Shown in pieces: positions 41,252-56,478 of a DNA stretch of 64,000 nucleotides. The notes beneath the pieces are model-generated. The model did not search any database. It saw nothing but the letters and a program-made list of their open reading frames with translations, and was not told where the DNA came from. Positions within the stretch are counted from its first letter, which is position 1, and the number at the start of each line of letters is the position of its first letter. The stretch lies in NCBI GenBank assembly GCA_963810935.1, contig CAWEPK010000007.1, positions 192,001 through 256,000 of the forward strand. The letters are read 5' to 3'. The stretch comes from an uncultured delta proteobacterium (GTDB taxonomy: Bacteria > Desulfobacterota > Syntrophorhabdia > Syntrophorhabdales > WCHB1-27). The position numbers and the translations under genes were made by a program.

Positions 41252-44200
41252 TTATAGCAATATATGTCCCGGAAGCCCGGTTTGCAGGGGCGCGATTTTT
41301 TCGGCCATGACGTTTATCACGCCGTCCTTGCGCTCAAGCGAGCCGTCAACGACGAGAAGCGGTTCCAGGCGGACGACCTGCCTGTATTTGTTGTAGACGT
41401 CGGGCCTTAGCACTACGTTGATCAGGCCGTCCGGGTCTTCGAGCGTTATGAAGGCGAAGCCCCTGGCCGTAGGCGGCATCTGAAGGCAGACGTTGTAGCC
41501 GCTCACCCTGACGGGCCTGCCTGCGCGCAGGCGTGCAAGGTCGCTGCTTTTTGCAACGCCCGCGCGGGATAGCCCCTCTTCGTATATGTCCAGGAGGTGG
41601 CCCGTCGCGGAAAAGCCCTGCACGCCGTAAGCGGCAAGCAGCTCATCTGTGCCGCTCATCTCGTCGAGTGGCGCAATTTCCGCGGCCCCGAAGTCGATCG
41701 CGTCCGCCGCGTGCGCGCCCTGGCCCATCGCGCCGAGTGCCCAGAGCAACTGCCTGCGCGAGCGTTCCAGGGCGTCGAAGGCGCCGACGACGATCAGACT
41801 CCGCAGAGCGCCTTTATCGAGGCGCGTGCGGACTGTGAAATCTTTGAAAGAGAGGAAAGGGCCGTCCTTGTCCCGTGCAGCCTCTACGGCGCGCGCTGCC
41901 TCCTCGCCCAGGTCCTTCACATAGCGGAAACCGAGTCGCACCTTTTTCTCCTTCGACTGCGCAGAGCGGCCCGCTCGCGTTCACGTCAACGGGGAGAATC
42001 GCGACATCGTGCCGCCTCGCGTTGCCCACGATCACCTCCGGCAGGTAGAACCCCATCGGCTGGTTGTTCAGAAGTGCGCAGTAGAATTCCGCCGGGTAGT
42101 AGAGCTTCAGGTAGGCGGAGCGGTAGCAGAGCAGCGCGAAGCTCATGGCGTGGCTCTTACAGAAGCCGAACTCGGCAAAGCCGCCGATCAGCTCGAATAT
42201 GGCGCAGCGCGGTCTGCCCGTCTATCCCTTTCTCCTTTCGCGCCTGCGACGAAGCGCTCCTGCCATCTTGCGAACTCGGCCCGCGCGTACTTCCGCCCCA
42301 TCGCCTTGCGCAGCCCGTTCGCCTCGGCTGCGGTGAAGCCCGCCGCGGCCATCGCCACTTGCAATATCTGCTCCTGAAAGAGTATGACGCCGAGGGTCTC
42401 CCGCAGCACGGGCTCCAGGAGCGGATGGATGTAGGATGGCGGCTCGCGGCCTGCGCGCCTGCGCATGTAAGGGTTGACCATGTGCCCCTGCAATGGGCCG
42501 GGGCGTATGATGGCGACTTCTATCCCTAAGTCTTCGAGGCTCTTAGGCTTCACCCTCGGCAGGCTCTGCATCTGGGCGCGGCTCTCGACCTGGAAGACGC
42601 CCACCGTATCGGCCCTGCCTATCATGTCGTAGACGCGCGGGTCGTCCTCGGGCAGGCGGTCGAAATCGGGCGCGGCAGCCGCACCGCGCGTATGCCTTAT
42701 CAGGCGGAGCGCCTCGTCGATGAGGGAGAGCATGCGCAGGCCGAGGAGGTCCATCTTGATCAACCCCGAGTCATCGACGCCGTCCTTGTCCCACTGGCAG
42801 ACTACGCGACCTTCCGCCCGCGCCCGCTCAAGGGGGACCATACGGGAGATCGGCTCACACGAGACGATCATCCCGCCGACGTGGATGGACAGGTGCCTCG
42901 GGAAATCGGCTATCTGCCCGGCGACGGCGGTGAAGCGGCCCCACGCTTCCGAGCCGAGGTACCGGGCGAACTCCGGTACGTTCCGCAGGTCGTCAATGGC
43001 GGAGGCGGGGCTGTAAGCGGAGACTGATTTCGCCATCCTGTCGAGCACGTGGGGCGGCAGGCCGAAGGCCTTGCCCACCTCGCGTATCGCGTTGCGCGCC
43101 CGGAACGTCACGTAGGTGCAGACCATCGCCGCGTGCTCTTCGCCGTACTTCCGGTAGACGTACTGGATCACTTCCTCGCGCCGCTGCGTGTCGATATCTA
43201 TGTCGATGTCCGGGACAGCGGACGACTCGTTCAGGAAGCGGCCGACGAAAAGGGCGTGCCTGATGGGATCGACGGGGGTGATGCCCAGCAGATAGGCGAC
43301 GAGCGAGCCTGCGGCCGAGCCGCGCCCCTGCGCGAGGATGGCGTGCGAACGGGCGAACTCTATGATGTCCCATACAATGAGGAAATAGCCGCACATGCCC
43401 TTGCGCTCGATGATGGCAAGCTCCTGGTCGAGCCTCGGCAGCGCATCGGGGGGAGGGGCTTCGCCGTAGCGCACCGGGATGCGCTCTATGCAGAGCCGCC
43501 GCAGGAGGGCAGATTCGGTCTCTCCCGGCGGACACGCGAACACAGGCAGCGAGTAGGACGAGAAATCGAGGTCGAACGCGCAGGCGTCCGCGACCGCGAG
43601 TGTCCGCCGTATCGCGTCCTCCGGCATGCCCGAAAGGCGGCGCATTTCGTCATATCCTTTCAGGTAGTATTCCGAGTTGGGGCGGCGGAAAGGAGCGGAG
43701 TCATCGAGGCTCACCCTGTTTTTGATGCAGGCGAGCACGTCTGCGAGCCTGTGGCCTGGCCGGGCGGCGTAGTGGACGTTGTTCGTGGCAACAGCGGGGA
43801 TGCCTGTTGCGCGGGCGAGGTCACAAAGCTTGCGGCAGAAGCGCGCGTCGCCGGGGTTGAGGTGGTGCTGAAGCTCGATGAAAAAATTGCCGGGGCCGAA
43901 AAGGGAAAGCAGGCGGCGGGCGGCTGCCTGCGCGTCGTCGTACCTGTGCGCGGCAACAAGGGAGGGGACTTCACCTTTCGCGCAGCCGGAAAGGCAGATA
44001 AGTCCGTCCGTCCGGCCCGCGAGAAGGGCAGGGTCGAGGCGCGGCAAGCCTTTGACACCGGAGAGCTGGGATTTTGTAATCAGGCCGCTCAAATTCGCAT
44101 AGCCGACAGCATTGCGGACAAGCAGGGTAAGGTGGGCGCCGCCGCAAAGAGTCAACTCCGCGCCGACAATAGGCTTGACGCCGGCGGCGCCGGCGGCGCG

Positions 44201-44350
44201 GCAAAAGCGCGGGACGGCGTAGAGGCCGTCGTGGTCGGTGAGGGCGAGGGCGGAAAGGCGCATCTGAGATGCGGCCTCAACGAGGGCTTCCGGGAAGGAT
44301 GCTCCGTCGAGGAGGGAAAAGTTGGAATGGGCATGAAGCTCGGCGTACAT
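41252..44350 (-). CDS. dnaE2: Error-prone DNA polymerase DnaE2/ImuC; frameshifts near 42200-42240 and 41945
   Basis: YAELHAHSNFSLLDGAS, GRGSAA, PDIDID, PRHLSIHVGG, FQVESRAQ, ALLNNQPMGFY, FITLED. Confidence 0.9.
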
Positions 44351-44363
44351 TTTCTATCGGAGC

Positions 44364-44550
44364 TTGACCTGTACAGACATTAGATGTACATAAGAAAGGC
44401 AGCCAGAGATTACAAACAAGAGCAGGAGCAGAAGGAGTAAACCATGAAGTGCGACAAAGAAGAGAAATCTATTCTCGACGCATACAGCAAGGGTAAGCTG
44501 ACTCTATCCATCCCTTCAAAGAAGAAGCTTGATACAATCAAGGCCGCTGT
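44364..44550 (+). pseudogene. Decayed BrnT/BrnA-like toxin-antitoxin remnant
   Basis: Promoter TTGACC-17-TACATA with tgtaca..tgtaca operator; toxin-like tail RKAARDYKQEQEQKE*; antitoxin-like start MKCDKEEKSILDAY cut off by the repeat at 44551. Confidence 0.5.
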
Positions 44551-44604
44551 GGCAAGTGGCGAGAACCAAATGAAGGGCAAGTCAAGTTGGTCAATTACAT
44601 CCCC
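44551..44604. repeat. Partial (right-half) copy of the 80-bp hairpin repeat
   Basis: ggcaagtggcgagaaccaaatgaagggcaagtcaagttggtcaattacatcccc. Confidence 0.85.
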
Positions 44605-44614
44605 TATCGTCCGG

Positions 44615-45013
44615 TCATGCCCAGTTCTCGATCGTGAGCCCCGGGATTCTTTTGAATTCCTTCAGATTGTTGGTCACGAGAATCGCGTCAAGGCTCCGGG
44701 CGTGAGAGGCGATCATCAGATCCATCGCCCCTATGGGCAGTCCCGCCTTCTCCAGATGAGTTCTTATCTCTCCGTAGTGGACCGCCGCAATGTCGTCAAA
44801 AGGAGCTATCTCGAAAGGAGCAAGAAAGCCCATTAGTGCTTCTTCGTTGCGCTCCGGACTGCCGCTCTTGACGACGCCATACCTCAATTCGGCGAGAGTT
44901 ACCGACGATATGCCGACATCGAAGGGCTTCAACGCCCTGAGCCGTTTGGCTACGGCAGGGGGGTTCTTCTTGATGACGTATATGCAGATGTTCGTATCGA
45001 GCATGAAGCGCAT
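44615..45013 (-). CDS. vapC: VapC PIN toxin
   Basis: MLDTNICIY, AELRYG, IGAMDLMIASHA, LVTNNLKEF. Confidence 0.95.
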   Translation of the reverse strand: MRFMLDTNICIYVIKKNPPAVAKRLRALKPFDVGISSVTLAELRYGVVKSGSPERNEEALMGFLAPFEIAPFDDIAAVHYGEIRTHLEKAGLPIGAMDLMIASHARSLDAILVTNNLKEFKRIPGLTIENWA

Positions 45014-45237
45014 CAGAAGTCCCTTTGTTCCACGGCCGGCTGCTTTCTTTCGGTCATGAAATCGTCGGAGAAGCGGCCGAGACTTTCGAAGAACGGCTTC
45101 CACGGGTCTTCCTTCGGAAAGAGGATTACGGTGCCTCCAACCTTGTTCACGTAAACCTCATCCCCCTCGAAACGATACTCCTTCGGCAGTCTTATTGCCT
45201 GGCTCTTGCCGTTCTTGAATATCTTCGCAGTATGCAT
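45013..45237 (-). CDS. vapB: VapB antitoxin (AbrB type)
   Basis: AKIFKNGKSQAIRLPKEYRF; translationally coupled to vapC; operator-like gtctatac-N6-gtatatac at 45256-45277. Confidence 0.95.
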   Translation of the reverse strand: MHTAKIFKNGKSQAIRLPKEYRFEGDEVYVNKVGGTVILFPKEDPWKPFFESLGRFSDDFMTERKQPAVEQRDF

Positions 45238-45320
45238 GTCCGAGCCTCCTTCTTAGTCTATACTTATGAGTATATACCTTGTGGTGAAGAAGTGCAACTA
45301 TATGTGGGGGGACTATGTGG

Positions 45321-45400
45321 GGGGACGTAGTTGACTAAGTTGACAAGGCAAATGGCGAGAACCAAATGAGGGGCAAGTCAAGTTAGTCAACTGCGTCACC
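45321..45400. repeat. 80-bp hairpin repeat, copy 2
   Basis: ggggacgtagttgactaagttgac-32nt-gtcaagttagtcaactgcgtcacc. Confidence 0.92.
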
Positions 45401-46396
45401 TAATCGGTTCAGGCTTTTTCGGCGACCGAGGTTATTTACTTATTTACGGTCGTCCCCTTGGGCTTCCTACGCCGTGTGCGCGGTTGTGGACTATGGATAG
45501 CTGCGTCCTTTAGCTGGCCCGGCGGTCGAGTATTTCTTCCTGAAGGGCTATATTTCGCTCGACTGGGCCGAGGGCAAGTGTTACAATCCGTAATGATTGC
45601 TCTAACCAGGAGATATGAGCTTTCCGAGAAAGGGCAAGGGCCGGCTTCATTCATTGAGTCAACAAACGAAACAACCTTGCCACCGACTCCCTAAGCGGCC
45701 CCAACAAAAAAAGAGACTATGTCGATATGACCATGCTTATCACTGAAATCCATTGTATAAATAGCCTATTATCTAATGGCTTTATCGTATTCGCCGCAGA
45801 CCGGCGTATTTCGCGAAGCGGTAATTACGAGGGTAGTCGAAAAAAAATATTCCCTATTCCATATCTTAGGGCCGGGATTGGTTTCTTCGGCCTGGCTGAG
45901 GTGTTTATTACACCCACAACGTCCTTGCCTATGAGCGATTGGCTGTCGAGCTTTATACGAAATAATTCAAGTCTTGGGACTCTGTCACTTTTTGCGAATA
46001 AATTGGCGGAGCAGTTAAACACAGCTATTCCCGCGCAGTCACGACAGAAATATATATCGGGGTTTCACATTGCCGGTTATACTGCTGGTGGAATGCCAGA
46101 ATTCTGGTTCGTCCGCAATGTGGAGGATGATCGCAAAAGTATCACAGGAGTGTACGCGGCAAGGGAGGATTTTCTTAGCAGAGATGCACGGGTCATGGGC
46201 TATGATGGAGTGAATGCGAGTTCGATTAGAACGTCATTTAGACAGACATACCGAAATGGTGATATTCGAGCGCATGTCACGGTGTGGGAGAAGATTGATG
46301 AGGGGTTTTCAGCTCTCGCTAGAGCAGCCGGAATTCAAGAAACTCAGGACGATTTCTGACTATGAGGAGTACGTCAAATTCAAAATGGAAATAATT

Positions 46397-47045
46397 TCAT
46401 TCTGGTAAACCCCCGGCTCTGCCGGGGGAATCCCGGAGTTTGACAATTCCGGGAATATATAGGAAAGCCTCCTGTATCCGTGAACCGTTTAGGCGGTCGG
46501 CAGAGTTAAGGAGGCTTTCGGTGGAAGATATTCAGAGCTTATGTCATACGGTATGGGATTGCAAGTATCATGTGGTGTGGATTCCGAAGTACCGGAAAAA
46601 GGTACTATACGGGAATCTCAGGAAGGAGCTAGGGCCCATCATCAAGGAGCTGGCGCGGCAGAAGGAGAGCGAGGTGTTGGAGGGGAAACTGGTAGTGGAC
46701 CACGTCCACGTGTTGCTCTCGGTTCCCCCAAAGTATGCCGTTGCCCAGGTGGTAGGCTTTATCAAAGGGAAGAGCGCGATCTACATAGCCCGGATGAGCG
46801 GCAGGAGACGCAACTTCGTAGGTCAGAGCTTTTGGGCCAGAGGTTATTGCGTATCGACCATAGGGTTGGACGAGCAAGCCATACGAGCGTACATCCAAGC
46901 CCAGGAAGAGACAGATCGAAGGCTCGACCAGATGAAACTGTTTGAGAAGGACAAATAGCTGCCTTTAGGCAGCTAACGCACAACTAACCGCTTTGAGCGG
47001 TTCACGGTTTTAACAAACCCCCGGCTTTGCCGGGGGTAGATGATT
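46397..47045 (+). mobile_element. IS200/IS605-family element (tnpA only)
   Basis: Subterminal hairpins aaacccccggctctgccggggg and aaacccccggctttgccggggg; excision restores the host reading frame (3-bp ATT ambiguity). Confidence 0.88.
46521..46958 (+). CDS. tnpA: IS200-type Y1 HUH transposase
   Basis: CKYHVVWIPKYRKK, DHVH, FWARGY, IRAYIQAQ; RBS aaggagg. Confidence 0.95.
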   Translation: MEDIQSLCHTVWDCKYHVVWIPKYRKKVLYGNLRKELGPIIKELARQKESEVLEGKLVVDHVHVLLSVPPKYAVAQVVGFIKGKSAIYIARMSGRRRNFVGQSFWARGYCVSTIGLDEQAIRAYIQAQEETDRRLDQMKLFEKDK

Positions 47046-47165
47046 GCGTACTTCTATAAGAGGTATTGTCGAACATCAATTATTGCGAGGCCGATTGACG
47101 CGTTTTCAATCAGTGGGAACACGGGGTAGTGCGATGCCACTTAATAAGTGAGTACCTGTGACGTG

Positions 47166-47245
47166 GGGGACGTGGTTGACTAAGTTGACAAGGCAAATGG
47201 CGAGAACAAAATGAGGGGCAAGTCAAGTTAGTCAACTACGTCTCC
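47166..47245. repeat. 80-bp hairpin repeat, copy 3
   Basis: ggggacgtggttgactaagttgac...gtcaagttagtcaactacgtctcc. Confidence 0.92.
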
Positions 47246-47271
47246 TATCGGTGTAGAAGGAGGTCGCAGAG

Positions 47272-47484
47272 ATGATGAGATGTAATATGACCGACCGGTG
47301 CAATGGCAAGTTTGATTTCACTCAGGGACGAGGAAGGAAAAGAGACTACCGTGATTGTCCTCATCACGGCAACCATACGCCAACAACGGGGGCCTACAAT
47401 GGTAGGGTCGGAAACTGCATGGGAGCCAATCAATGTCCAAATAGAACGCAGGACGCATGGTGCGAGTATGTAAAAGAGGATTAA
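47272..47484 (+). CDS. Small Cys/His-rich hypothetical protein between two repeats
   Basis: Strong RBS aaggaggt; 70 aa with 6 Cys; fills the inter-repeat interval. Confidence 0.6.
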   Translation: MMRCNMTDRCNGKFDFTQGRGRKRDYRDCPHHGNHTPTTGAYNGRVGNCMGANQCPNRTQDAWCEYVKED

Positions 47485-47506
47485 TATCGCGGCCAAGACG
47501 GACATG

Positions 47507-47586
47507 GGGGACGTAGTTGACTAAATTGACAAGGCAAATGGCGAGAACCAAATGAGGGGCAAGTCAACTCAGTCAACTACGTCCCC
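47507..47586. repeat. 80-bp hairpin repeat, copy 4
   Basis: ggggacgtagttgactaaattgac...gtcaactcagtcaactacgtcccc. Confidence 0.92.
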
Positions 47587-47694
47587 TATCGGTGTATCGG
47601 TGTCCTGGCCGACGCAGAGTGGGCTATGTGAGTCACACAACAAACGGATGGAGCCGACTACTTATCGTCCGGTTCAGCCACGCGTGAAAGCTAT

Positions 47695-48567
47695 ATGAAG
47701 AAAAAGAACTATAAGATAGGGCTTGTTGTCGGCCTCTTTCCCGAACAGTATAGGATTGCTGATCCGCGACTGAACAAGCCCGTTTGCCACCAGCAAATAG
47801 AAGAAGGGAAAGTTACAGGCTCAATGCTGCTGCAGGACCTTGAGATAGCAACAATCGACGGAGGCAAAGAGGTTACCTATTTTTGCCCCAACAATGTAGC
47901 CGTATTGTTGTCTGTGAGTTCCAAGGCCCTTGGCAAGGCAAAAGAGTTGTACAAGAAGTTCTTTCGCGCGCCGGATATGGAGTTTCGGATAGAAAAGATT
48001 GAAGGGGACAAGAAGGCTTTTCTAAATCAGGTATCCAGCGAGGTATGCGATTATATCGAGTACGTACAGACGTCCGTTGTGTTTGCTTACACGGCCTTGG
48101 AGACATTTACAAATCTCAGCATTCCTGAAGGATACCTGTATCAGACTGAAAACAAATCGAAAGGCGTAAAAGAAACTTATGACAAAAATGCCATAGAGCG
48201 CTGGCTAAGTCTGAAGGTCAAGGTCCAGCATATCCTAACGGAAATCTATGCAACTGAGAAGGCGGAACATAGGGAATGGTGGGGACACCTTTCTAATTTG
48301 GAACGGTACCGCAATGACATTATCCATCAAAAGACGATTACCAGCACCAGCTTCTATAAAGAGTATTTCAAGGCCACTGTTTTCCCAGCCTGTGAATGCC
48401 CACTGGCAATAATGAAATTCTTCTATGAAGCACACGCACACAACAACAGAACAAACCCGATATGGCCTTGGCTTGTTAACGAGAAGAACTATTTTCCTGT
48501 AAACACTCAATATGATTCGCAGGGTTTTGAAGTAATAGGGAATGCGTATGAAGGAATAAAGGAATGA
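47695..48567 (+). CDS. Hypothetical protein with HEPN-like motif
   Basis: FAYTALETFTN helix and RNDIIH (R-x4-H); low GC. Confidence 0.65.
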   Translation: MKKKNYKIGLVVGLFPEQYRIADPRLNKPVCHQQIEEGKVTGSMLLQDLEIATIDGGKEVTYFCPNNVAVLLSVSSKALGKAKELYKKFFRAPDMEFRIEKIEGDKKAFLNQVSSEVCDYIEYVQTSVVFAYTALETFTNLSIPEGYLYQTENKSKGVKETYDKNAIERWLSLKVKVQHILTEIYATEKAEHREWWGHLSNLERYRNDIIHQKTITSTSFYKEYFKATVFPACECPLAIMKFFYEAHAHNNRTNPIWPWLVNEKNYFPVNTQYDSQGFEVIGNAYEGIKE

Positions 48568-48678
48568 TCTCTAACCGTGCTATGCAGAGAACCGCGCACC
48601 GCTCCCGATGATGGGCCTGATGGCCCAGTGGTTGATATAGGCGACAAGCCATGTAGCCAGCGCATATATGCTACTATA

Positions 48679-48930
48679 TTACATGCTATCCTGCCGGAAC
48701 CACCCGTCGCTGATTAGGTCGCGGAATAGGGTGATGCGCTTCCGGTTTTCCAGCTCGACCAGGAAATAGAGCCGCGAGACTTCGTCTCGCCACCATTCTT
48801 CGTCGATGCGCCATGCATCTACGATACTTGCCACCCGCAGCCGCCTCTTTTTATAGGCTACCGCCAGTGGCCTCCCTTCGCCGTCTATCACGTCAATACC
48901 TTCCGGCTCGTATGGGCCCGGCCTGGACAT
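48679..48930 (-). CDS. Small protein resembling the ImuB C-terminal/DUF6504-like domain
   Basis: DGEGRP...WRIDEEWW...RLYFLVE...LFRD..W. Confidence 0.75.
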   Translation of the reverse strand: MSRPGPYEPEGIDVIDGEGRPLAVAYKKRRLRVASIVDAWRIDEEWWRDEVSRLYFLVELENRKRITLFRDLISDGWFRQDSM

Positions 48931-49388
48931 TACTAACCTGTTCTTACCGCGTTACTTATGGGACGTTTCAATATCCCGGCTTGCCTGCATTACGGCTTTG
49001 CTCTCGCTGCGTCCGCCTCACGACACCCCTCCTCCCCCCCCAAAGGGAGAGGGAAAAGGGTAGCCTGCATCGCTTTTGCAGTATCCCAACTATCAACCTA
49101 GGACAACCCGCTCTTACCGCCGCCCAATGGATGCGCAGCATCGCTGCTTCCGTTAGCGGCGGTTGCGGTTGGAGGAACGCCTCAAGGGGTCGTGATATGT
49201 GGATGCAATGTGAGACGTGGCGGCCGGAGATCGTACATAGGTACATCGGAGGCCCCAAGTCGAGCAGGGCGCCGCATAGCGCGGCCCCGCAGCAGGCGCG
49301 AGTCCAGCCGCCCGCAGTGCTCCGCCGTTGCTTTTTTGCCTCTTGTTTTTGTCACATCTATCCGCGTTGGTTTTGCCACCACCACCCG

Positions 49389-50575: not shown

Positions 50576-50613
50576 CTTGATTAATATAGTACATGCGTAC
50601 TATATTAATCAAG
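50576..50613. promoter_or_regulatory. Perfect 17-bp-arm palindrome containing AGTAC-N4-GTACT (candidate SOS box)
   Basis: cttgattaatatagtac-atgc-gtactatattaatcaag directly upstream of the imuB start. Confidence 0.7.
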
Positions 50614-50906
50614 TGTTATTTGGGACGCGGCCGGCGGACCGGGATCTTTCCGCGCCTTTCGCGTCGTTTTCTCGGGCGCGAGTCCTCACTTGCCACCCGC
50701 GCCTGGCAAGCCCTGAGCGCGGGTACCCGGCTACCATTTTATACGCTCCGGCTCGCTTCGTCGAAAAACAACGCGAAATCCATCGGAAATCTCCCGATCC
50801 GCCAGCCGCGTCTTGTGATTTTTCCGGCTTATCGCTTGCCCATCCCTGTGTTCTTTTGTTGATTTGTATTGATATCCCTTACGCGTCATGATACATTTGT
50901 ATTACT

Positions 50907-52146: not shown

Positions 52147-55100
52147 CTACCAAGCCTTCTGGAAGTTCGTCTGGTAGATCGCTCCGCCCCTCGCGTTGTA
52201 TATGGTTGCGATGTTCTGCCCGACGTTGACCGCCGACCCTACAGCGTTCAGGATGATCATGCCGGACGTATTCGACTGCGAGCCGTCCAGGACGATCGAA
52301 GAGCTGTTGTTCTGCCCGCCTGACGATCCCATATAGCTGTTAGACTGGTCCGCTTTGCTCTTTGCATAAGCGTACTGAACGTTGACCTGGTGGATATCGA
52401 CGTCCGCCCCGCAGGCTTCGATGATGTTCTGACCCACGTTGACGGCCGACATGGCTGCGTTCACTACGGACAGTGCCGATAACCCGTTCTGCGAGTTGAT
52501 AAGGTCTATGGAGCCGTTGTTGGCAGTCTGGGACATCGTTTTTCCGGACTTCACCTGCTGGTCCGCATAGACGTCGGCTGCTGCGACCTGCAGGTTCGCC
52601 TGTAGCACGTTTATATGGCTTCCCGCCTGGACCGTGGCTATGTTCTGGCCGATGTTGCCCGCCGACCCCGCCAGGTTCGCGATGGATTCCGCAGACGCGT
52701 AATCCTGCGAGCCGACCATCTGTATGGAGGCGTTGTTCGCCGTCGCCTTGTCCGTGTCGCCGTTCATGATCGACTGTGTGTAAGTGCCCAGGACGCCTGA
52801 TGCCTGCGCGTTCGCCTGGATGAAGCCCGCGTTCATGGTCGCGGTTACGTCTGCTACGTTCTGGCCGACGTTGGCCGCGGAGCCTGCCGCGTTAAGGATG
52901 GAGAGTGCGCTCGTGACGCTCTGGGAGTCGATAAGCTGGATCGAGGCGTTGTTGCTCGCCTGCTTCATTACGCCTTTGCTGCCGACTTCCTGCGTTACGG
53001 CGGTGTCGAGTCCGGCGCCCTGGAGGTTCGCCTGGACAAAGTAAACGTTTTTCCCGTCCGCCGTGGCGATGTTCTGCCCTATGTTGCCGGCGGTGGCGGC
53101 CATGTTAGCAAAAGAGATCCCCTTCCCGTCGTTCTGTGAATCGACGGCCTGCACGGAGCCGTTGTTATTGGCCTGCTGCATCACGCCGTAGCTCATCACC
53201 GTCTGGAGGACCGGCGCCGCTTCGAGCGCGACCTGCACGTTGGCCTGCGCGAACGCTACAAGCGCGGACTGCATTTTGTCCACTCCCTCGACGTTCGCTA
53301 TGTTCTGGCCGATGTTAGCCGCAGAACCCGCGATGTTGGCCAGGGAATCGGCATCAACGTAGTTCTGCGAGCCGCCGCCCAGGAGCTGCACCGATCCGTT
53401 GTTGTTAGCCTGCTTCGTGGCCATGCCGCTCGCCACTGTCTGGGCCGACCCGTTGTAGGAGGCCGCGAGCTGGAGGTTGAGCTGGAGGAAAGCTGCCGCT
53501 TCGGCCACTTCCACGCTCGCCATGTTCTGCCCTACGTTCGCCGCCGAAGAGGCTACGTTTGCCACTGAAAGTGCCTGGACGTGGTTCTGGGAGTCATCGA
53601 GCCGGACGGAAGCGTTGTTATTCACCTGTTCTGTTGCACTGCCGCTCACGACTGTCTGTGAGAAGCCTTCCGTGCTGAGCGCGACCTGGCCGTTCAACTG
53701 GGTAAAGATGGCCCCTAAGGCCTCGACGTTCGCTATGTTCTGGCCGATGTTGCCCGCCGAGCCCGCGATGTTGGCCAGGGAATCGGCATCAACGTAGTTC
53801 TGCGAGCCGCCGCCCAGGATCTGGAGGGACCCGTTGTTATTGGCCTGTCCCGTCACGCCGTACCCGGTCACGAACTGTACGCCCGTCGCCTCCGTAGAGG
53901 CAGTCTGGAGGTTGGCCTGCGCGAACCCGGCCAGGCCGGCCACCACGCTCGCGACGTTCTGACCGAGGTTGACGGAAGAGAGGGCCGCGTCGAGTATCGA
54001 GACGCCGCTTGCGATGTTCTGGCTGTCGATCATGTAGACCGAGCCGTTGTTGTTCGTCTGGCTGGTCGCGTTCATATTATCCACGTACTGGACTGCGGTG
54101 CTGTCCACTCCGGTCTTCTGGAGGTTGGTCTGGAGGAAACTCGTGCTCAGCGCGGCGACGTCGATGATGTTCTGCCCGATGTTGGCCGCGGCGCCCGCCA
54201 GGTTGGCAATGCTCATCGCGCTCGCGTTGCCTTGCGAACCGGAGAGCCATACGGAGTCGTAATTGTTGTTGGAGTAAGAAGAGTCGCCCGGTCTTCTTTC
54301 GCCCGGCACCAGGCCGTCGACTGCGACTACCTTGTCGCTCTGCAAGTTCTTCTGCGTGGCATAGGCCACCTTTGTGGTGGTGATGCTCGCGATGTTCTGG
54401 CCGATATTGGCCTGCGTCTCAGCCGCATTCAGGATCGACAGGCCGGTCGCGGCGTTCTGGGCGCCTGCGAGCTGCACCGACTCGGCGTTGTTGTTCTGGT
54501 GGTCGGTCATGCCCTTGTTTTCGACCGTCTGCCCGTAAGTAATCTCCGTTGCGTCGATCTGCGCGGATTGCTTGTTCGTCTGCTTGACGTTCGTATCGCC
54601 CATGCTTGTCACGTCGGCCACGTTCTGCCCCACGTTGACCGCCGACGCTGCGGCGTTGACGAGGGAGTCGGCGGAGACGGCGTTCTGGGCGTCCCATATC
54701 TGGACGGAGCCGTCGTTGTTGAACTGGTTGCTCGTCTTCCCGTAGTTGGTCACGTACTGGGAGGCATCCGCTTCAGAAAAGGCGGTCTGCCTGTTCAACT
54801 GCGTCACGTCGAAAGGCCCGTTCTTGACGGAGGCGATGTTCTGCCCGACGTTGACGGCAGACTGCGCGGCGTTCGTCATGGCGATGGCGTTCACGCTGTT
54901 CTGAGCGCCGTCATACACCTGGACGGACCCGGCGTTGTTGATCTGGCCGGCTACGCCCTTCTTGTTCTCGACCGTCTGGTACACGTCGCCGGAGTTGTTT
55001 GCGGTCTGCACGTTTTTCTGATTGACGCTTATGTACGCCTTGTCCCCGCCGCCCGTTATCGAGGCGACGTTCTGCCCGACGTTGACGGCAGACAGCGCGG

Positions 55101-56478
55101 CGTCGACCAGCGCTATAGACGAGGCGCCTTCCTGTGCGTTATCCGCAGCCATGACGGAGGCGTTGGAGTTGGCCTGGTTCGTGACCATGCCGTAATTGGT
55201 GACTTTCTGCGTGTTGCCCGTGATTATCGGGTCGTCGAAAACGCCGTTGTTCGCCGTCTGATAATTCTTCTGGTTGAAGGAGAACTTGCCGCGTTCCATC
55301 ATGCCGGACATATCTGCGGAGGCGATGTTCTGCCCCACGTTGACAGCCGAGTTGGCGGTGTTCGTCAGGGCGTCCGTCTTCGAGTAAGACTGCGCCGAAT
55401 CGCCGATGGCGACAGCGGTGCTGAAGTTGCTCTGACCCGTGACGGCGTACTTGTTCTTCACCGTCTGCTCAGTCGCGGCGAAATTGGTTGCATCCTGGCT
55501 ATTGTTCTGGCTCGCCTTGAGGTCGTACGCCGTAGAGGAGATGAAGTTCTGGCCGATATTAACCGCTGAAAGGGCCGCGTTGGCGATAGCAAGGCCGCTG
55601 GCCTCATTCTGCGCGGTATCGCCGGCAACTACCGAGCCGTTGTTACTTGCCTGGCCGGCGACTGTCCCGTAGTTCTTGACGTACTGTACGGCCGACGCGT
55701 CGCTTGTCGCTTCCTGGGAATTGACCTGCTGGACGTAGATGCCGTCAGCCTTGCCCAGGGAGGCCAGCGTCTGCCCGATATTAAGCGCCGAGGCTGCCAC
55801 GTTCCCGAGCGCCAATGCCGAGATATTCGACTGGGCCGAGCCGCCCAGGTCGACCGACCCGTTGTTGTTGGCCTGGCTCATGACCCACATCTTGTTTGTA
55901 ACTTTCTGCTCGGCCGCGCCTGTGAACGTGCCGACCTGGGAGTTGTTCTGGCGGAGGTCGACGTCGGATGACATATCTCCCACGCTCGCGATCTGCTGGG
56001 AGATATCGGCTGCTGCGTACCCGGAGTTGAGCATCTGGAATGCTGAGGCCCCCGACTGCGCGCTCCCGCCCAATACCACCGAGCCCACGTTATTGTACTG
56101 GTTGCCCACGGAGGTGTGGTTTGTCTGGGAGACGAAGAGCGGCATCGCACTATTCGTCGCGCTCTCGGTCGTGTCTGAATAGGAGCTGAAGTGCGTCACG
56201 CTTTCGAGATCGACGATGTTCTGGTGGATGTTCATGTTATCCATGACCACGTTGTAGACAGTCATGGCGGAGGAGCCTGATTGGGCCGTCCCTCCGAGTT
56301 GCACGGCATTGAAATTGTTGTATTCCGCTGAAATCCCCGGTGTAACCGTTTCGAAGCCCTTTGCGCTGACTGTCCCGAGGTCTTCGTCGGTCATCACGCT
56401 GACGCCCGCTGACGCGGTGAAGAATGGCGCGACGACGAGAAGAGACGATAACACGAACCGAAAAACGGACCGTTTCAT
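52147..56478 (-). CDS. 1443-aa exported N/Q/A/S/G-rich repeat protein (~19 repeats of ~72 aa)
   Basis: Signal peptide; repeats of QxNNNGSVQL..SQN..SAL..ANAA.SAVNVGQNIA...Q.N.Q; RBS aaggagg. Confidence 0.88.
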   Translation of the reverse strand: MKRSVFRFVLSSLLVVAPFFTASAGVSVMTDEDLGTVSAKGFETVTPGISAEYNNFNAVQLGGTAQSGSSAMTVYNVVMDNMNIHQNIVDLESVTHFSSYSDTTESATNSAMPLFVSQTNHTSVGNQYNNVGSVVLGGSAQSGASAFQMLNSGYAAADISQQIASVGDMSSDVDLRQNNSQVGTFTGAAEQKVTNKMWVMSQANNNGSVDLGGSAQSNISALALGNVAASALNIGQTLASLGKADGIYVQQVNSQEATSDASAVQYVKNYGTVAGQASNNGSVVAGDTAQNEASGLAIANAALSAVNIGQNFISSTAYDLKASQNNSQDATNFAATEQTVKNKYAVTGQSNFSTAVAIGDSAQSYSKTDALTNTANSAVNVGQNIASADMSGMMERGKFSFNQKNYQTANNGVFDDPIITGNTQKVTNYGMVTNQANSNASVMAADNAQEGASSIALVDAALSAVNVGQNVASITGGGDKAYISVNQKNVQTANNSGDVYQTVENKKGVAGQINNAGSVQVYDGAQNSVNAIAMTNAAQSAVNVGQNIASVKNGPFDVTQLNRQTAFSEADASQYVTNYGKTSNQFNNDGSVQIWDAQNAVSADSLVNAAASAVNVGQNVADVTSMGDTNVKQTNKQSAQIDATEITYGQTVENKGMTDHQNNNAESVQLAGAQNAATGLSILNAAETQANIGQNIASITTTKVAYATQKNLQSDKVVAVDGLVPGERRPGDSSYSNNNYDSVWLSGSQGNASAMSIANLAGAAANIGQNIIDVAALSTSFLQTNLQKTGVDSTAVQYVDNMNATSQTNNNGSVYMIDSQNIASGVSILDAALSSVNLGQNVASVVAGLAGFAQANLQTASTEATGVQFVTGYGVTGQANNNGSLQILGGGSQNYVDADSLANIAGSAGNIGQNIANVEALGAIFTQLNGQVALSTEGFSQTVVSGSATEQVNNNASVRLDDSQNHVQALSVANVASSAANVGQNMASVEVAEAAAFLQLNLQLAASYNGSAQTVASGMATKQANNNGSVQLLGGGSQNYVDADSLANIAGSAANIGQNIANVEGVDKMQSALVAFAQANVQVALEAAPVLQTVMSYGVMQQANNNGSVQAVDSQNDGKGISFANMAATAGNIGQNIATADGKNVYFVQANLQGAGLDTAVTQEVGSKGVMKQASNNASIQLIDSQSVTSALSILNAAGSAANVGQNVADVTATMNAGFIQANAQASGVLGTYTQSIMNGDTDKATANNASIQMVGSQDYASAESIANLAGSAGNIGQNIATVQAGSHINVLQANLQVAAADVYADQQVKSGKTMSQTANNGSIDLINSQNGLSALSVVNAAMSAVNVGQNIIEACGADVDIHQVNVQYAYAKSKADQSNSYMGSSGGQNNSSSIVLDGSQSNTSGMIILNAVGSAVNVGQNIATIYNARGGAIYQTNFQKAW

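Follow-up and report, generated by a model that had tools for sequence, protein, structure and literature searches.

Putative gene-less TIRtron copies among toxin-antitoxin and defence-like genes at a variable site in the genome of an uncultured delta proteobacterium

TIRtrons and their transposases, the TIRYTs, were described by Di Nocera, De Gregorio and Rocco (2013). The main text of that paper reports terminal inverted repeats (TIRs) as singles, dimers and groups, and gives the motif GGGGWSAS as a trait of only a subset or majority of TIRs, the others being unrelated (PMC3733652). In the main text of Quentin et al. (2018) these enzymes are subclass 2.1 of the TnpA-Y1 transposases, equivalent to RAYT group 1; the subclass was present in about 15% of the strains sampled, and Table 1 assigns it the motifs NH[YF]H, FQ and Y[IV]HLNP (PMC6006769). 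The main text of Bertels et al. (2017) presents RAYT group 1 as the RAYT group most similar to insertion sequences (IS; PMC5581495). Of the Y1 subclasses that are still unstudied, TIRYTs form one of the largest. In the main texts found, neither a cut site nor an activity is given for subclass 2.1. The terms “duplication” and “target site” occur 0 times in the main text of PMC3733652, and “tandem”, “capture” and “cargo” 0 times in that of PMC6006769. End duplications or capture of DNA by a TIRYT were not found in the literature either (main texts; figures, supplements and subscription papers were outside the scope). Here we describe 80-bp hairpin repeats interspersed with toxin-antitoxin (TA) and defence-like genes in a 64,000-nt stretch (the window) of contig CAWEPK010000007.1 (GCA_963810935.1, positions 192,001-256,000), and their relationship to a TIRtron located on another contig of the same genome.

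The source genome (G000) is 93% complete and comprises 4 Mb; C1, C3, C7, C8, C12 and C14 are contigs of this genome, G002, G004, G014 and G017 are genomes of relatives, and L-numbers denote fetched loci. Comparisons covered 96 genomes of the class, 21 relatives of the family, 400 other genomes of the phylum and, for the insertion site, 11 relatives. The repeats are located in an island (44351-48678) with a GC content of 49%, compared with 64% and 60% in the 4-kb flanks. An earlier analysis based on the letters of the window (the sequence-only reading) had proposed an 80-bp element in three full copies and one half copy, all in a single orientation, and this was confirmed. The hairpin features are as follows.

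44551..44604, plus strand: hairpin copy 0 (loop and right arm), recognised by sequence comparison
45299..45320, plus strand: outer end of copy 1, including a tandem duplication of 13 nt, recognised from the sequence and the family-wide pattern
45321..45400, plus strand: hairpin copy 1, a predicted TIR dimer and non-autonomous TIRtron (arm 2/24 off the C8 TIR)
47166..47245, plus strand: hairpin copy 2 (repeat match and fold)
47507..47602, plus strand: hairpin copy 3 (hairpin 47507-47586), the outer right end of which is duplicated in tandem (8 nt)

The full copies show identity at 74-76 of 80 positions, and the half copy matches at 47 of 54. The predicted 32-nt loop was correct, while the quoted 24-bp arms represent a consensus only, with 21-22 of the 24 positions pairing in each copy. 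Five shuffled windows contained 0 matches at up to 12 mismatches, versus 3 in the real window, and the fold z-scores of the hairpin copies range from -5.6 to -6.5. The tandem duplications noted at the repeat edges (45301-45326 and 47587-47602) are present as claimed. No age gradient was found among copies 1-3. The loop has no match elsewhere in G000. Exact-pattern scans detected no closed dimer with exact arms in genome contigs outside the window and no loop-specific 23-mer in metagenome contigs; the arm alone occurred in 19 and 2 stretches of the contig scans. Neither the arm nor TIRYT was found in viral contigs, and Rfam yielded no relevant match. Contigs assembled from four sequencing runs (low depth; some may be the source sample) contained no joint skipping or circularising a module, and a 45345>49286 joint in these contigs corresponds to a solo-arm locus on C3. 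Two more intergenic repeats, at window positions 49270-49340 and 50639-50790, have a high genome copy number, as judged by read depth and loose ends.

The hairpin arm, which differs at 2 of 24 positions, is the TIR of a 1,028-bp element at C8:711985-713012. The suggestion that an HUH/RAYT-type enzyme serves the hairpins in trans thereby received support, as this element carries an intact TIRYT gene between matching TIRs (27/27 inverted match). The predicted protein of 317 amino acids (aa) contains the motifs NHFH (61), FQ (100) and YIHLNP (121), a Y1_Tnp domain (Pfam, 34.4 bits vs cut-off 23) and a C-terminal helix-turn-helix (HTH) domain (HTH_24, 23.4 bits vs cut-off 21.9; Bac_DnaA_C and HTH_23 were weak and below cut-off). 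A PDB sequence search with TIRYT gave 0 matches, and a single-sequence fold had a predicted local distance difference test score (pLDDT) of 40.6, too low for use. The TIR (GGGGACGT) lacks the GGGGWSAS motif. By its motifs, length and domain order the C8 element is assigned to the TIRtron/TIRYT class, subclass 2.1. The 5′ part of the hairpin loop resembles the inner left end of this element (AAGGCAAA vs AAGACAAA), and the 3′ part resembles the end of the TIRYT gene (M-R-G-K-S-S-stop vs M-E-D-E-S-R-stop in C8, the TAG codon lying within the right TIR in both). Because the loop joins the inner left end to the last TIRYT codons, the 80-mer is read as an internally deleted, gene-less and non-autonomous TIRtron copy, i.e. 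a TIR dimer. The suggestion of an undescribed gene-capture system is overstated in this respect: the class of the element is a known one, the TIRtron, and TIR dimers and clusters already appear in the main text of PMC3733652.

Eleven further arms (up to 4 mismatches) are scattered in G000, and the arm was present in 11 of the 21 family relatives. TIRYT homologs (E<=1e-60) occur in 46 of the 96 class genomes, with 1-6 matches each and near-identical copies within single genomes. The intact relatives with TIR pairs amount to 24 distinct elements, and other dimers were found in L021, L022 and L026. No empty site for the C8 element was found in five relatives. The C8 TIRtron lies among RHS fragments and low-GC immunity-like open reading frames (ORFs), and arms of G002 (L018) are likewise located at an RHS locus. 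One other IS, starting with GATTCCTGAGAAGTAACTCTC, interrupts right TIRs of TIRtrons in L068 and L111, and a related transposase gene follows a truncated TIR in a third place (L169:7674); this IS may target TIRtron TIRs.

The true ends of the element are placed about 9-10 nt outside the TIR by footprints that recur across the family. TIR ends were collected from G000 and all fetched loci, allowing up to 4 mismatches to a library of observed TIRs (243 distinct ends). A tandem duplication touches 36 of these 243 ends, versus 9 of 1,813 random positions in these same sequences; the ends stem from related genomes and several of the duplications belong to a single array, so the counts are not independent. 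In controls run on 127 ends, duplications were present at 2 of 1,063 non-arm GGGACG sites of G000 and at 0 of 125 inner positions. Counted from the first G, the outer borders of the duplications have their peak at -8 to -10. The inner borders range from -1 to beyond +30, and in L098 they lie as far inside the element as +424 and +624. Left as well as right ends carry duplications. With lengths of 7 to >600 bp, these were also seen at solo ends and in full-length elements, where the two ends are 1 kb apart. In 59 near-identical end pairs, positions -9 to -1 outside the TIR have an identity of 0.54-0.88; farther out it is close to background. No target-site duplication was detected in the 24 intact elements, whose direct repeats are no longer than those of mismatched-pair controls. 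Both duplications of the window fit the family-wide pattern, and the 13-nt one at copy 1 may represent a short abortive end copy, with GGGGAC at 45308. A solo arm on C14 (L014:3941; C14:11940) is exactly the right arm of copy 3 and has a 16-nt end duplication; 23 nt further on lies a low-GC gene of 286 aa, SEC-C/DUF5677-like.

To locate cargo junctions, 300 bp outside each end were compared with other copies and the position at which homology stops was recorded, with shifted anchors as the control. The stop lies at -8 to -14 for 16 of 60 hits, these 16 representing 14 distinct junctions, versus 2 of 79 in the control (p about 2e-4), and none of the 60 hits was a clean empty site. Cargo borders coincide with element ends, as had been claimed for the module borders of the island. 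A vapBC module 95% identical to that of the island is present in G014, which belongs to another genus, exactly over 44613-45298; on one side the homology stops 8 nt outside the TIR of copy 0, and on the other side 9 nt outside the short end duplicate at copy 1. Clear TIRs were found near only 2 of 12 vapBC homolog loci. In G002 (L018), the stretch between +25 of one TIR and -11 of the next is a 240-bp copy, at 95% identity, of an RHS gene located 2 kb away, and copies of nearby DNA abut ends at -12/-13 in L186 and L062. A pair of genes in L114, which we take to be TA-like (the tested ORF had no Pfam hit), lies between a short left-end copy and a full element. Arrays of ends in the same orientation with TA or other cargo occur in G004 and G017 (L165, L169, L185, L186 and L188). 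In L169 (G017:C11) and L167 (G004:C8), backbones of 1-3.5 kb are repeated, each with a right TIR at its end followed by a differing TA pair or methylase.

Of 42 pairs of adjacent ends that are separated by 250-6,000 bp and have no intervening transposase, 25 are parallel, 15 outward and 2 inward; the loci used for the junctions, arrays and orientations had been selected for holding ends and stem from few genomes. With so few inward pairs, the cargo is considered to lie outside the ends rather than within composite transposons. Copy 1 truncates the 3′ end of a sister element. ORFs just outside the ends have a GC content of 0.52 vs 0.57. Enrichment of TA and defence genes at the ends was not significant (13/123 longest outside ORFs vs 6/123 distant ORFs from the same loci, p 0.15; Pfam TA/defence families tallied by the analyst after crude ORF picking).

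The island is inserted in the lexA-imuB-dnaE2 operon, between a small conserved ORF and dnaE2, which directly follows this ORF in most relatives. In the 11 relatives compared, the site is empty or differently filled: the gap is <=58 bp in 7, 125-502 bp in 3 and 4.1 kb in G002. The latter is the closest relative (flanks 84-92% identical) and carries a different AT-rich insert; what this has in common with the island is no more than 80 bp (45466-45544) plus some 30 bp at the right-hand border. This insert at the identical site agrees with the view that cargo varies between relatives, and, since G002 holds other DNA there, the cargo appears to have turned over at one site since the G000 and G002 lineages split. 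The hot-spot is independent of this particular hairpin. An ordinary scattered MITE (miniature transposable element with inverted repeats) with conserved cargo order had been named as the refuting observation; solo arms do adjoin ordinary genes, yet the cargo differs between relatives. In another relative, a small extra gene lies between inverted repeats in the corresponding intergenic site (L053:2776-3279), and the site therefore tolerates insertions.

The remaining features of the island and its flanks are listed below.

42188..44350, minus strand: dnaE2 (error-prone DNA polymerase III alpha), left flank, start codon at the island border (Pfam DNA_pol3_alpha/PHP)
44351..44550, plus strand: TA remnant, presumably BrnT/BrnA-like, with promoter, last ~14 toxin codons and first ~36 antitoxin codons
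44613..45298, minus strand: vapBC module (vapC 44615-45013, vapB 45013-45237) with promoter to the -35 box (NCBIfam NF047863/NF047862, over cut-off)
45401..45458, plus strand: right TIR and preceding final codons from a second TIRtron family, truncated by copy 1 (28/29 TIR match)
45466-45544, plus strand: segment common to the G002 island
45536-45681, plus strand: repeated promoter-like module (45536-45640) with a degenerate right TIR of a third family at its tail (~45658-45681)
45727..47131, plus strand: Ntn-hydrolase-like gene of a ~248-aa family (175 homologs; tblastn in three pieces)
46392..47045, plus strand: IS200 (tnpA 46440-46958), unrelated to the hairpins (NF033573, over cut-off)
47272..47484, plus strand: 70-aa Cys/His-rich ORF with a ribosome-binding site, in a 261-bp interval
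47637..47690, plus strand: palindrome upstream of the HEPN-like gene, attC-like but degenerate (by eye, against the attC-flanked cassettes of L149-L151)
47695..48567, plus strand: HEPN-like gene, 290 aa, with an RNDIIH motif and followed by a CTAAC...ATGCAG half site
48679..48930, minus strand: small conserved ORF of the lexA-imuB-dnaE2 operon, right flank (no Pfam hit), which we take to be DUF6504-like

The proposed arrangement of one module per interval is not correct for the second interval, which also holds IS200 and the ends of two sister TIRtron families, overlooked in the sequence-only reading. The BrnTA-like remnant is real, with its promoter retained, the toxin body gone and the antitoxin truncated near codon 36; the antitoxin stub had no match among plasmids. 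The assignment of vapBC was equally sound (NCBIfam cut-offs passed). The right TIR at 45401-45458 matches at 28 of 29 positions a TIR beside another TIRYT in L043, and its motif was also found at ends in other genomes. The third-family module includes a sigma70-like site (45559-45587); a promoter scan of the island gave 5 sites vs 4.8 expected from shuffles, i.e. no excess. Modules of this kind (~140 bp, with a promoter-like CTCGAC-N17-TACAAT core and often a right TIR at the end) precede AT-rich, often defence-like ORFs at window 45536-45681, C7:315282, C12:185786, C1:121729 and C1:172334, as well as in L119-L147. They occur in 10 of the 96 class genomes, all of a single family, and are possibly a portable outward promoter derived from TIRtrons.

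The Ntn-hydrolase-like gene belongs to a genuine family, with Pfam Proteasome matched only at E 0.028. It has a frameshift near 46317, where a contig of one run shows a single-base difference, and is split by IS200, its 3′ end picking up at 47043-47131. Seven IS200 copies, 99-100% identical, are present in G000, and 3 of the 7 adjoin a GCTGA(G/A)CCCC repeat. The Cys-rich ORF exists as stated; it is an ORFan with no homolog found and may not be a gene. The HEPN-like gene has an R-x4-H motif (residue 206) and a weak Pfam HEPN match (E 0.035). This gene has 234 homologs, the best of which are 70-87% identical and the named ones of which occur in unrelated taxa; relatives carry PF27216 YopA_C. It was absent from the 400 other phylum genomes (0/400) and found in 2 plasmid records. 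PADLOC recognised none of 10 proteins, and a heuristic attC scan of G000 gave 53 weak hits, none of them convincing. The fold of the palindrome at 47637..47690 was not significant.

Outside the island, dnaE2 (window 41252-44350) is distributed over several frames, as it is in two same-genus relatives with a full-length match (L047 and L048); the broken frames reflect either real decay or assembly error. A perfect 13-bp inverted repeat with a 4-nt spacer (ATTAATATAGTAC-ATGC-GTACTATATTAAT; 50580-50609) is located between the divergent imuB and lexA starts and is a candidate LexA operator. A secreted-looking protein of 1,443 aa with Asn/Gln-rich repeats of ~72 aa is encoded at 52147-56478; it presumably resembles bacterial amyloid subunits.

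HUH enzymes (IS200/IS605, RAYTs and IS91) remain bound to the DNA 5′ of the nick and leave a free 3′-OH. In the mechanism we propose, TIRYT would nick at about -10 on the strand entering the TIR and be held on the 5′ end, and the free 3′-OH would prime copying into the element. Early re-ligation after x bases would give a duplication [-10..x] with a fixed outer and a variable inner border, whereas a template switch to nearby or incoming DNA before re-ligation would place an [end + cargo] unit beside the old end. Repetition at one permissive site (small ORF-dnaE2) would pile up equally oriented copies, the cargo lying outside them. Capture would then be a side effect of selfish-element activity, filtered afterwards by selection for self-maintaining TA modules. 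Such nicking, copy-out and template switching would explain why there are duplications and partial copies of the element, how the RHS fragment came to be sandwiched, why orientation is biased and why target duplications are absent. That the C8 TIRYT built the array in this way, by nicking about 9-10 nt outside the TIR, copying out and re-joining to other DNA, with cargo accretion as a by-product, is the reading we prefer, at even odds. The idea that the hairpins are capture sites stacking single-gene cargo stands as far as the junctions at the tips are concerned, which the breakpoints support, but nothing shows a dedicated system. More tentatively, and with rather more doubt than trust, we suggest that TIRYTs in general may effect integrase-free capture, with a nick ~10 nt outside, copy-out and ligation of DNA between repeated, in some cases promoter-bearing ends, yielding TA/defence arrays across anaerobes in a Helitron-like manner.

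Several observations weigh against construction of the array by the C8 TIRYT. An end-anchored deletion after ordinary insertion yields identical breakpoints, and the window junctions include no clean before/after pair. The flanks of vapBC in G014 are not TIRs, and the homology also ends at two functional limits, the stop codon and the -35 box, which selection by itself could have set. Where copy 0 meets the antitoxin there is a GGCAA microhomology (2 of 3 homologs read GCTACGGCAAA / GCGACGGCAAA at this point), and for this reason the joint is probably a deletion that took away the left arm. With arms 2/24 off the C8 TIR, the true helper may be a lost sister element. The G002 insert has no arm of the C8-type family, only a sister-family end remnant and one degenerate TIR (5/24 mismatches; 0 in 4 shuffles at <=6), and many ends adjoin ordinary metabolic genes. 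Intact BrnTA homologs are present in 3 of the 96 other class genomes, all 3 flanked by attC-like palindromes (by eye), and the HEPN-like gene is probably of attC-type origin. Given the attC-like flanks of these BrnTA homologs, and the attC-like halves around the HEPN-like gene together with its similar homologs in unrelated taxa, some cargo appears to have been integron-packaged first, by another system.

These observations feed the strongest rival explanation, in which the cargo (decayed integron cassettes and TA pairs in a hot-spot) came first, and a mini-TIRtron hopped locally on one strand, its ends trimming their neighbours back to the tips by deletion and capturing nothing. The attC-flanked BrnTA homologs and the attC-like halves around the HEPN-like gene are in line with this, as are the truncated antitoxin, the truncated sister-family end, the presence of IS200 and three TIR families within 4.3 kb, the G002 island without this arm at the corresponding site, the 11 further arms scattered in G000, and the lack of significant defence enrichment. 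Local hopping with adjacent deletion nevertheless leaves unexplained the copies of nearby DNA at -11 to -13 (sandwiched in L018; also L186 and L062), the duplications reaching hundreds of bases into the element, and the 0 clean empty sites among 60 homology hits; we regard it as possible, short of an even chance. A host that has domesticated one TIRYT as a selected platform for adding and shuffling defence/TA cassettes at hairpin sites, with end-borne promoters acting like the integron promoter Pc, would fit the similar TA arrays in G004 and G017, the 5 sites in G000 where the promoter-like module precedes AT-rich defence-like ORFs, the lower GC of the outside ORFs and the position of the island inside an SOS operon. 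Yet TIRYT is patchy and multi-copy (46/96 class genomes), with near-identical copies in the manner of a mobile element, an age gradient is missing among copies 1-3, the defence tally is not significant (p 0.15) and the cargo includes gene fragments, which makes this explanation improbable.

Enzyme-independent slippage with hairpin-induced repair at G-runs and palindromes would draw on the G-runs that start the ends, the strong folding of the dimers and the microhomology junction of copy 0. It is very improbable, however, given the rarity of duplications at other GGGACG sites (2/1,063), their occurrence at solo ends and at ends 1 kb apart, and an outer border that stays fixed while the length ranges from 7 to >600 bp. 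The reading of the hairpins as attC-like sites for an integron or other tyrosine recombinase, to which the array layout, 8 tyrosine recombinase matches in G000 and the attC-like remnants nearby might point, is largely refuted and barely credible: the hairpins end in GGGGAC/GTCCCC, not RYYYAAC/GTTRRRY, and their ends equal the transposase TIR. The absence of an integron integrase noted at the outset was confirmed, with no sequence over the cut-off in G000 and four relatives (0/5 genomes; TIGR02249 best 66.5 vs cut-off 265 in G000). Three other candidates were rejected. A repetitive extragenic palindrome (REP) or REPIN with a RAYT of subclass 2.2/2.5 disagrees with 16 matches (<=1 mismatch in 18) in 4 Mb, a GTAG within the arm and not at its foot, and 61.3 bits to RAYT profile NF047646 (cut-off 80). 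A classical DDE-mobilised MITE was discarded for the lack of target-site duplications in the 24 intact elements, and IS91/ISCR for the symmetric TIRs in place of distinct origin (ori) and terminus (ter) ends and for the presence of duplications at left as well as right ends.

With this locus, the class gains a helper that is identified, a minimal substrate with two ends, a relative carrying other cargo at the same site, and a test of breakpoints. According to the footprints, the predicted nick lies on the strand that enters the element, 8-11 nt outside GGGGAC; G000 itself contains the enzyme in intact form and, as natural minimal substrates, the 80-bp hairpins. Should the ends capture DNA, accessory arrays would have a further route of origin, one that integron finders miss and that would account for numerous “cassette arrays without integrase”; should they do no more than hop and delete, the locus still documents clearly how such elements remodel hot-spots.

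Integron cassette arrays and CALINs (clusters of attC sites lacking integron integrases) are repeat arrays with single-gene or TA cargo. The island resembles them in layout, and some of its cargo has attC-flanked relatives, but it has no IntI, its repeats are not attC sites and its junctions lie 8-10 nt outside the hairpin and not in a GTT core. Helitrons capture genes by means of an HUH enzyme, with no target duplication and with flanking DNA picked up. One-ended rolling-circle transposition of IS91/ISCR elements likewise involves an HUH enzyme, no target duplication and flank pick-up when copying and termination are uncoupled; in the part of the source consulted, these elements have distinct ori/ter ends, no TIRs and carry DNA beyond the terminator, whereas here the TIRs are symmetric and the cargo lies between ends repeated in place (PMC13181058). 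The integron mobilization unit and NFM2-MITE are non-autonomous TIR elements that flank accessory genes and depend on a transposase in trans; as presented in the portion of PMC3184786 available to us, they form composite units with 5-bp target duplications, while here there are none and inward pairs are rare (2/42). The nearest precedent for an association with cargo is the preprint of Laurenceau et al. (bioRxiv 10.1101/2020.03.09.984088), in which TnpA-REP of subclass 2.1 lies beside prochlorosin (procA) clusters. The enzyme subclass is shared, full and truncated copies occur among arrays of small genes, and mobilisation by the enzyme was proposed; however, those clusters comprise one gene family, no inverted repeats were found, and the authors later had no strong evidence for causality. 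The C8 element agrees with the TIRtrons in having a Y1/HUH gene with a C-terminal HTH between inverted repeats starting with GGGG, and differs in that the published main texts give no cut site, mechanism or cargo, and in the sequence of its TIR (GGGGACGT). The element class and TIR clusters were already known; the main texts of the literature found contained neither the position of the ends nor the footprint of duplications, nor a connection of the ends with cargo junctions.

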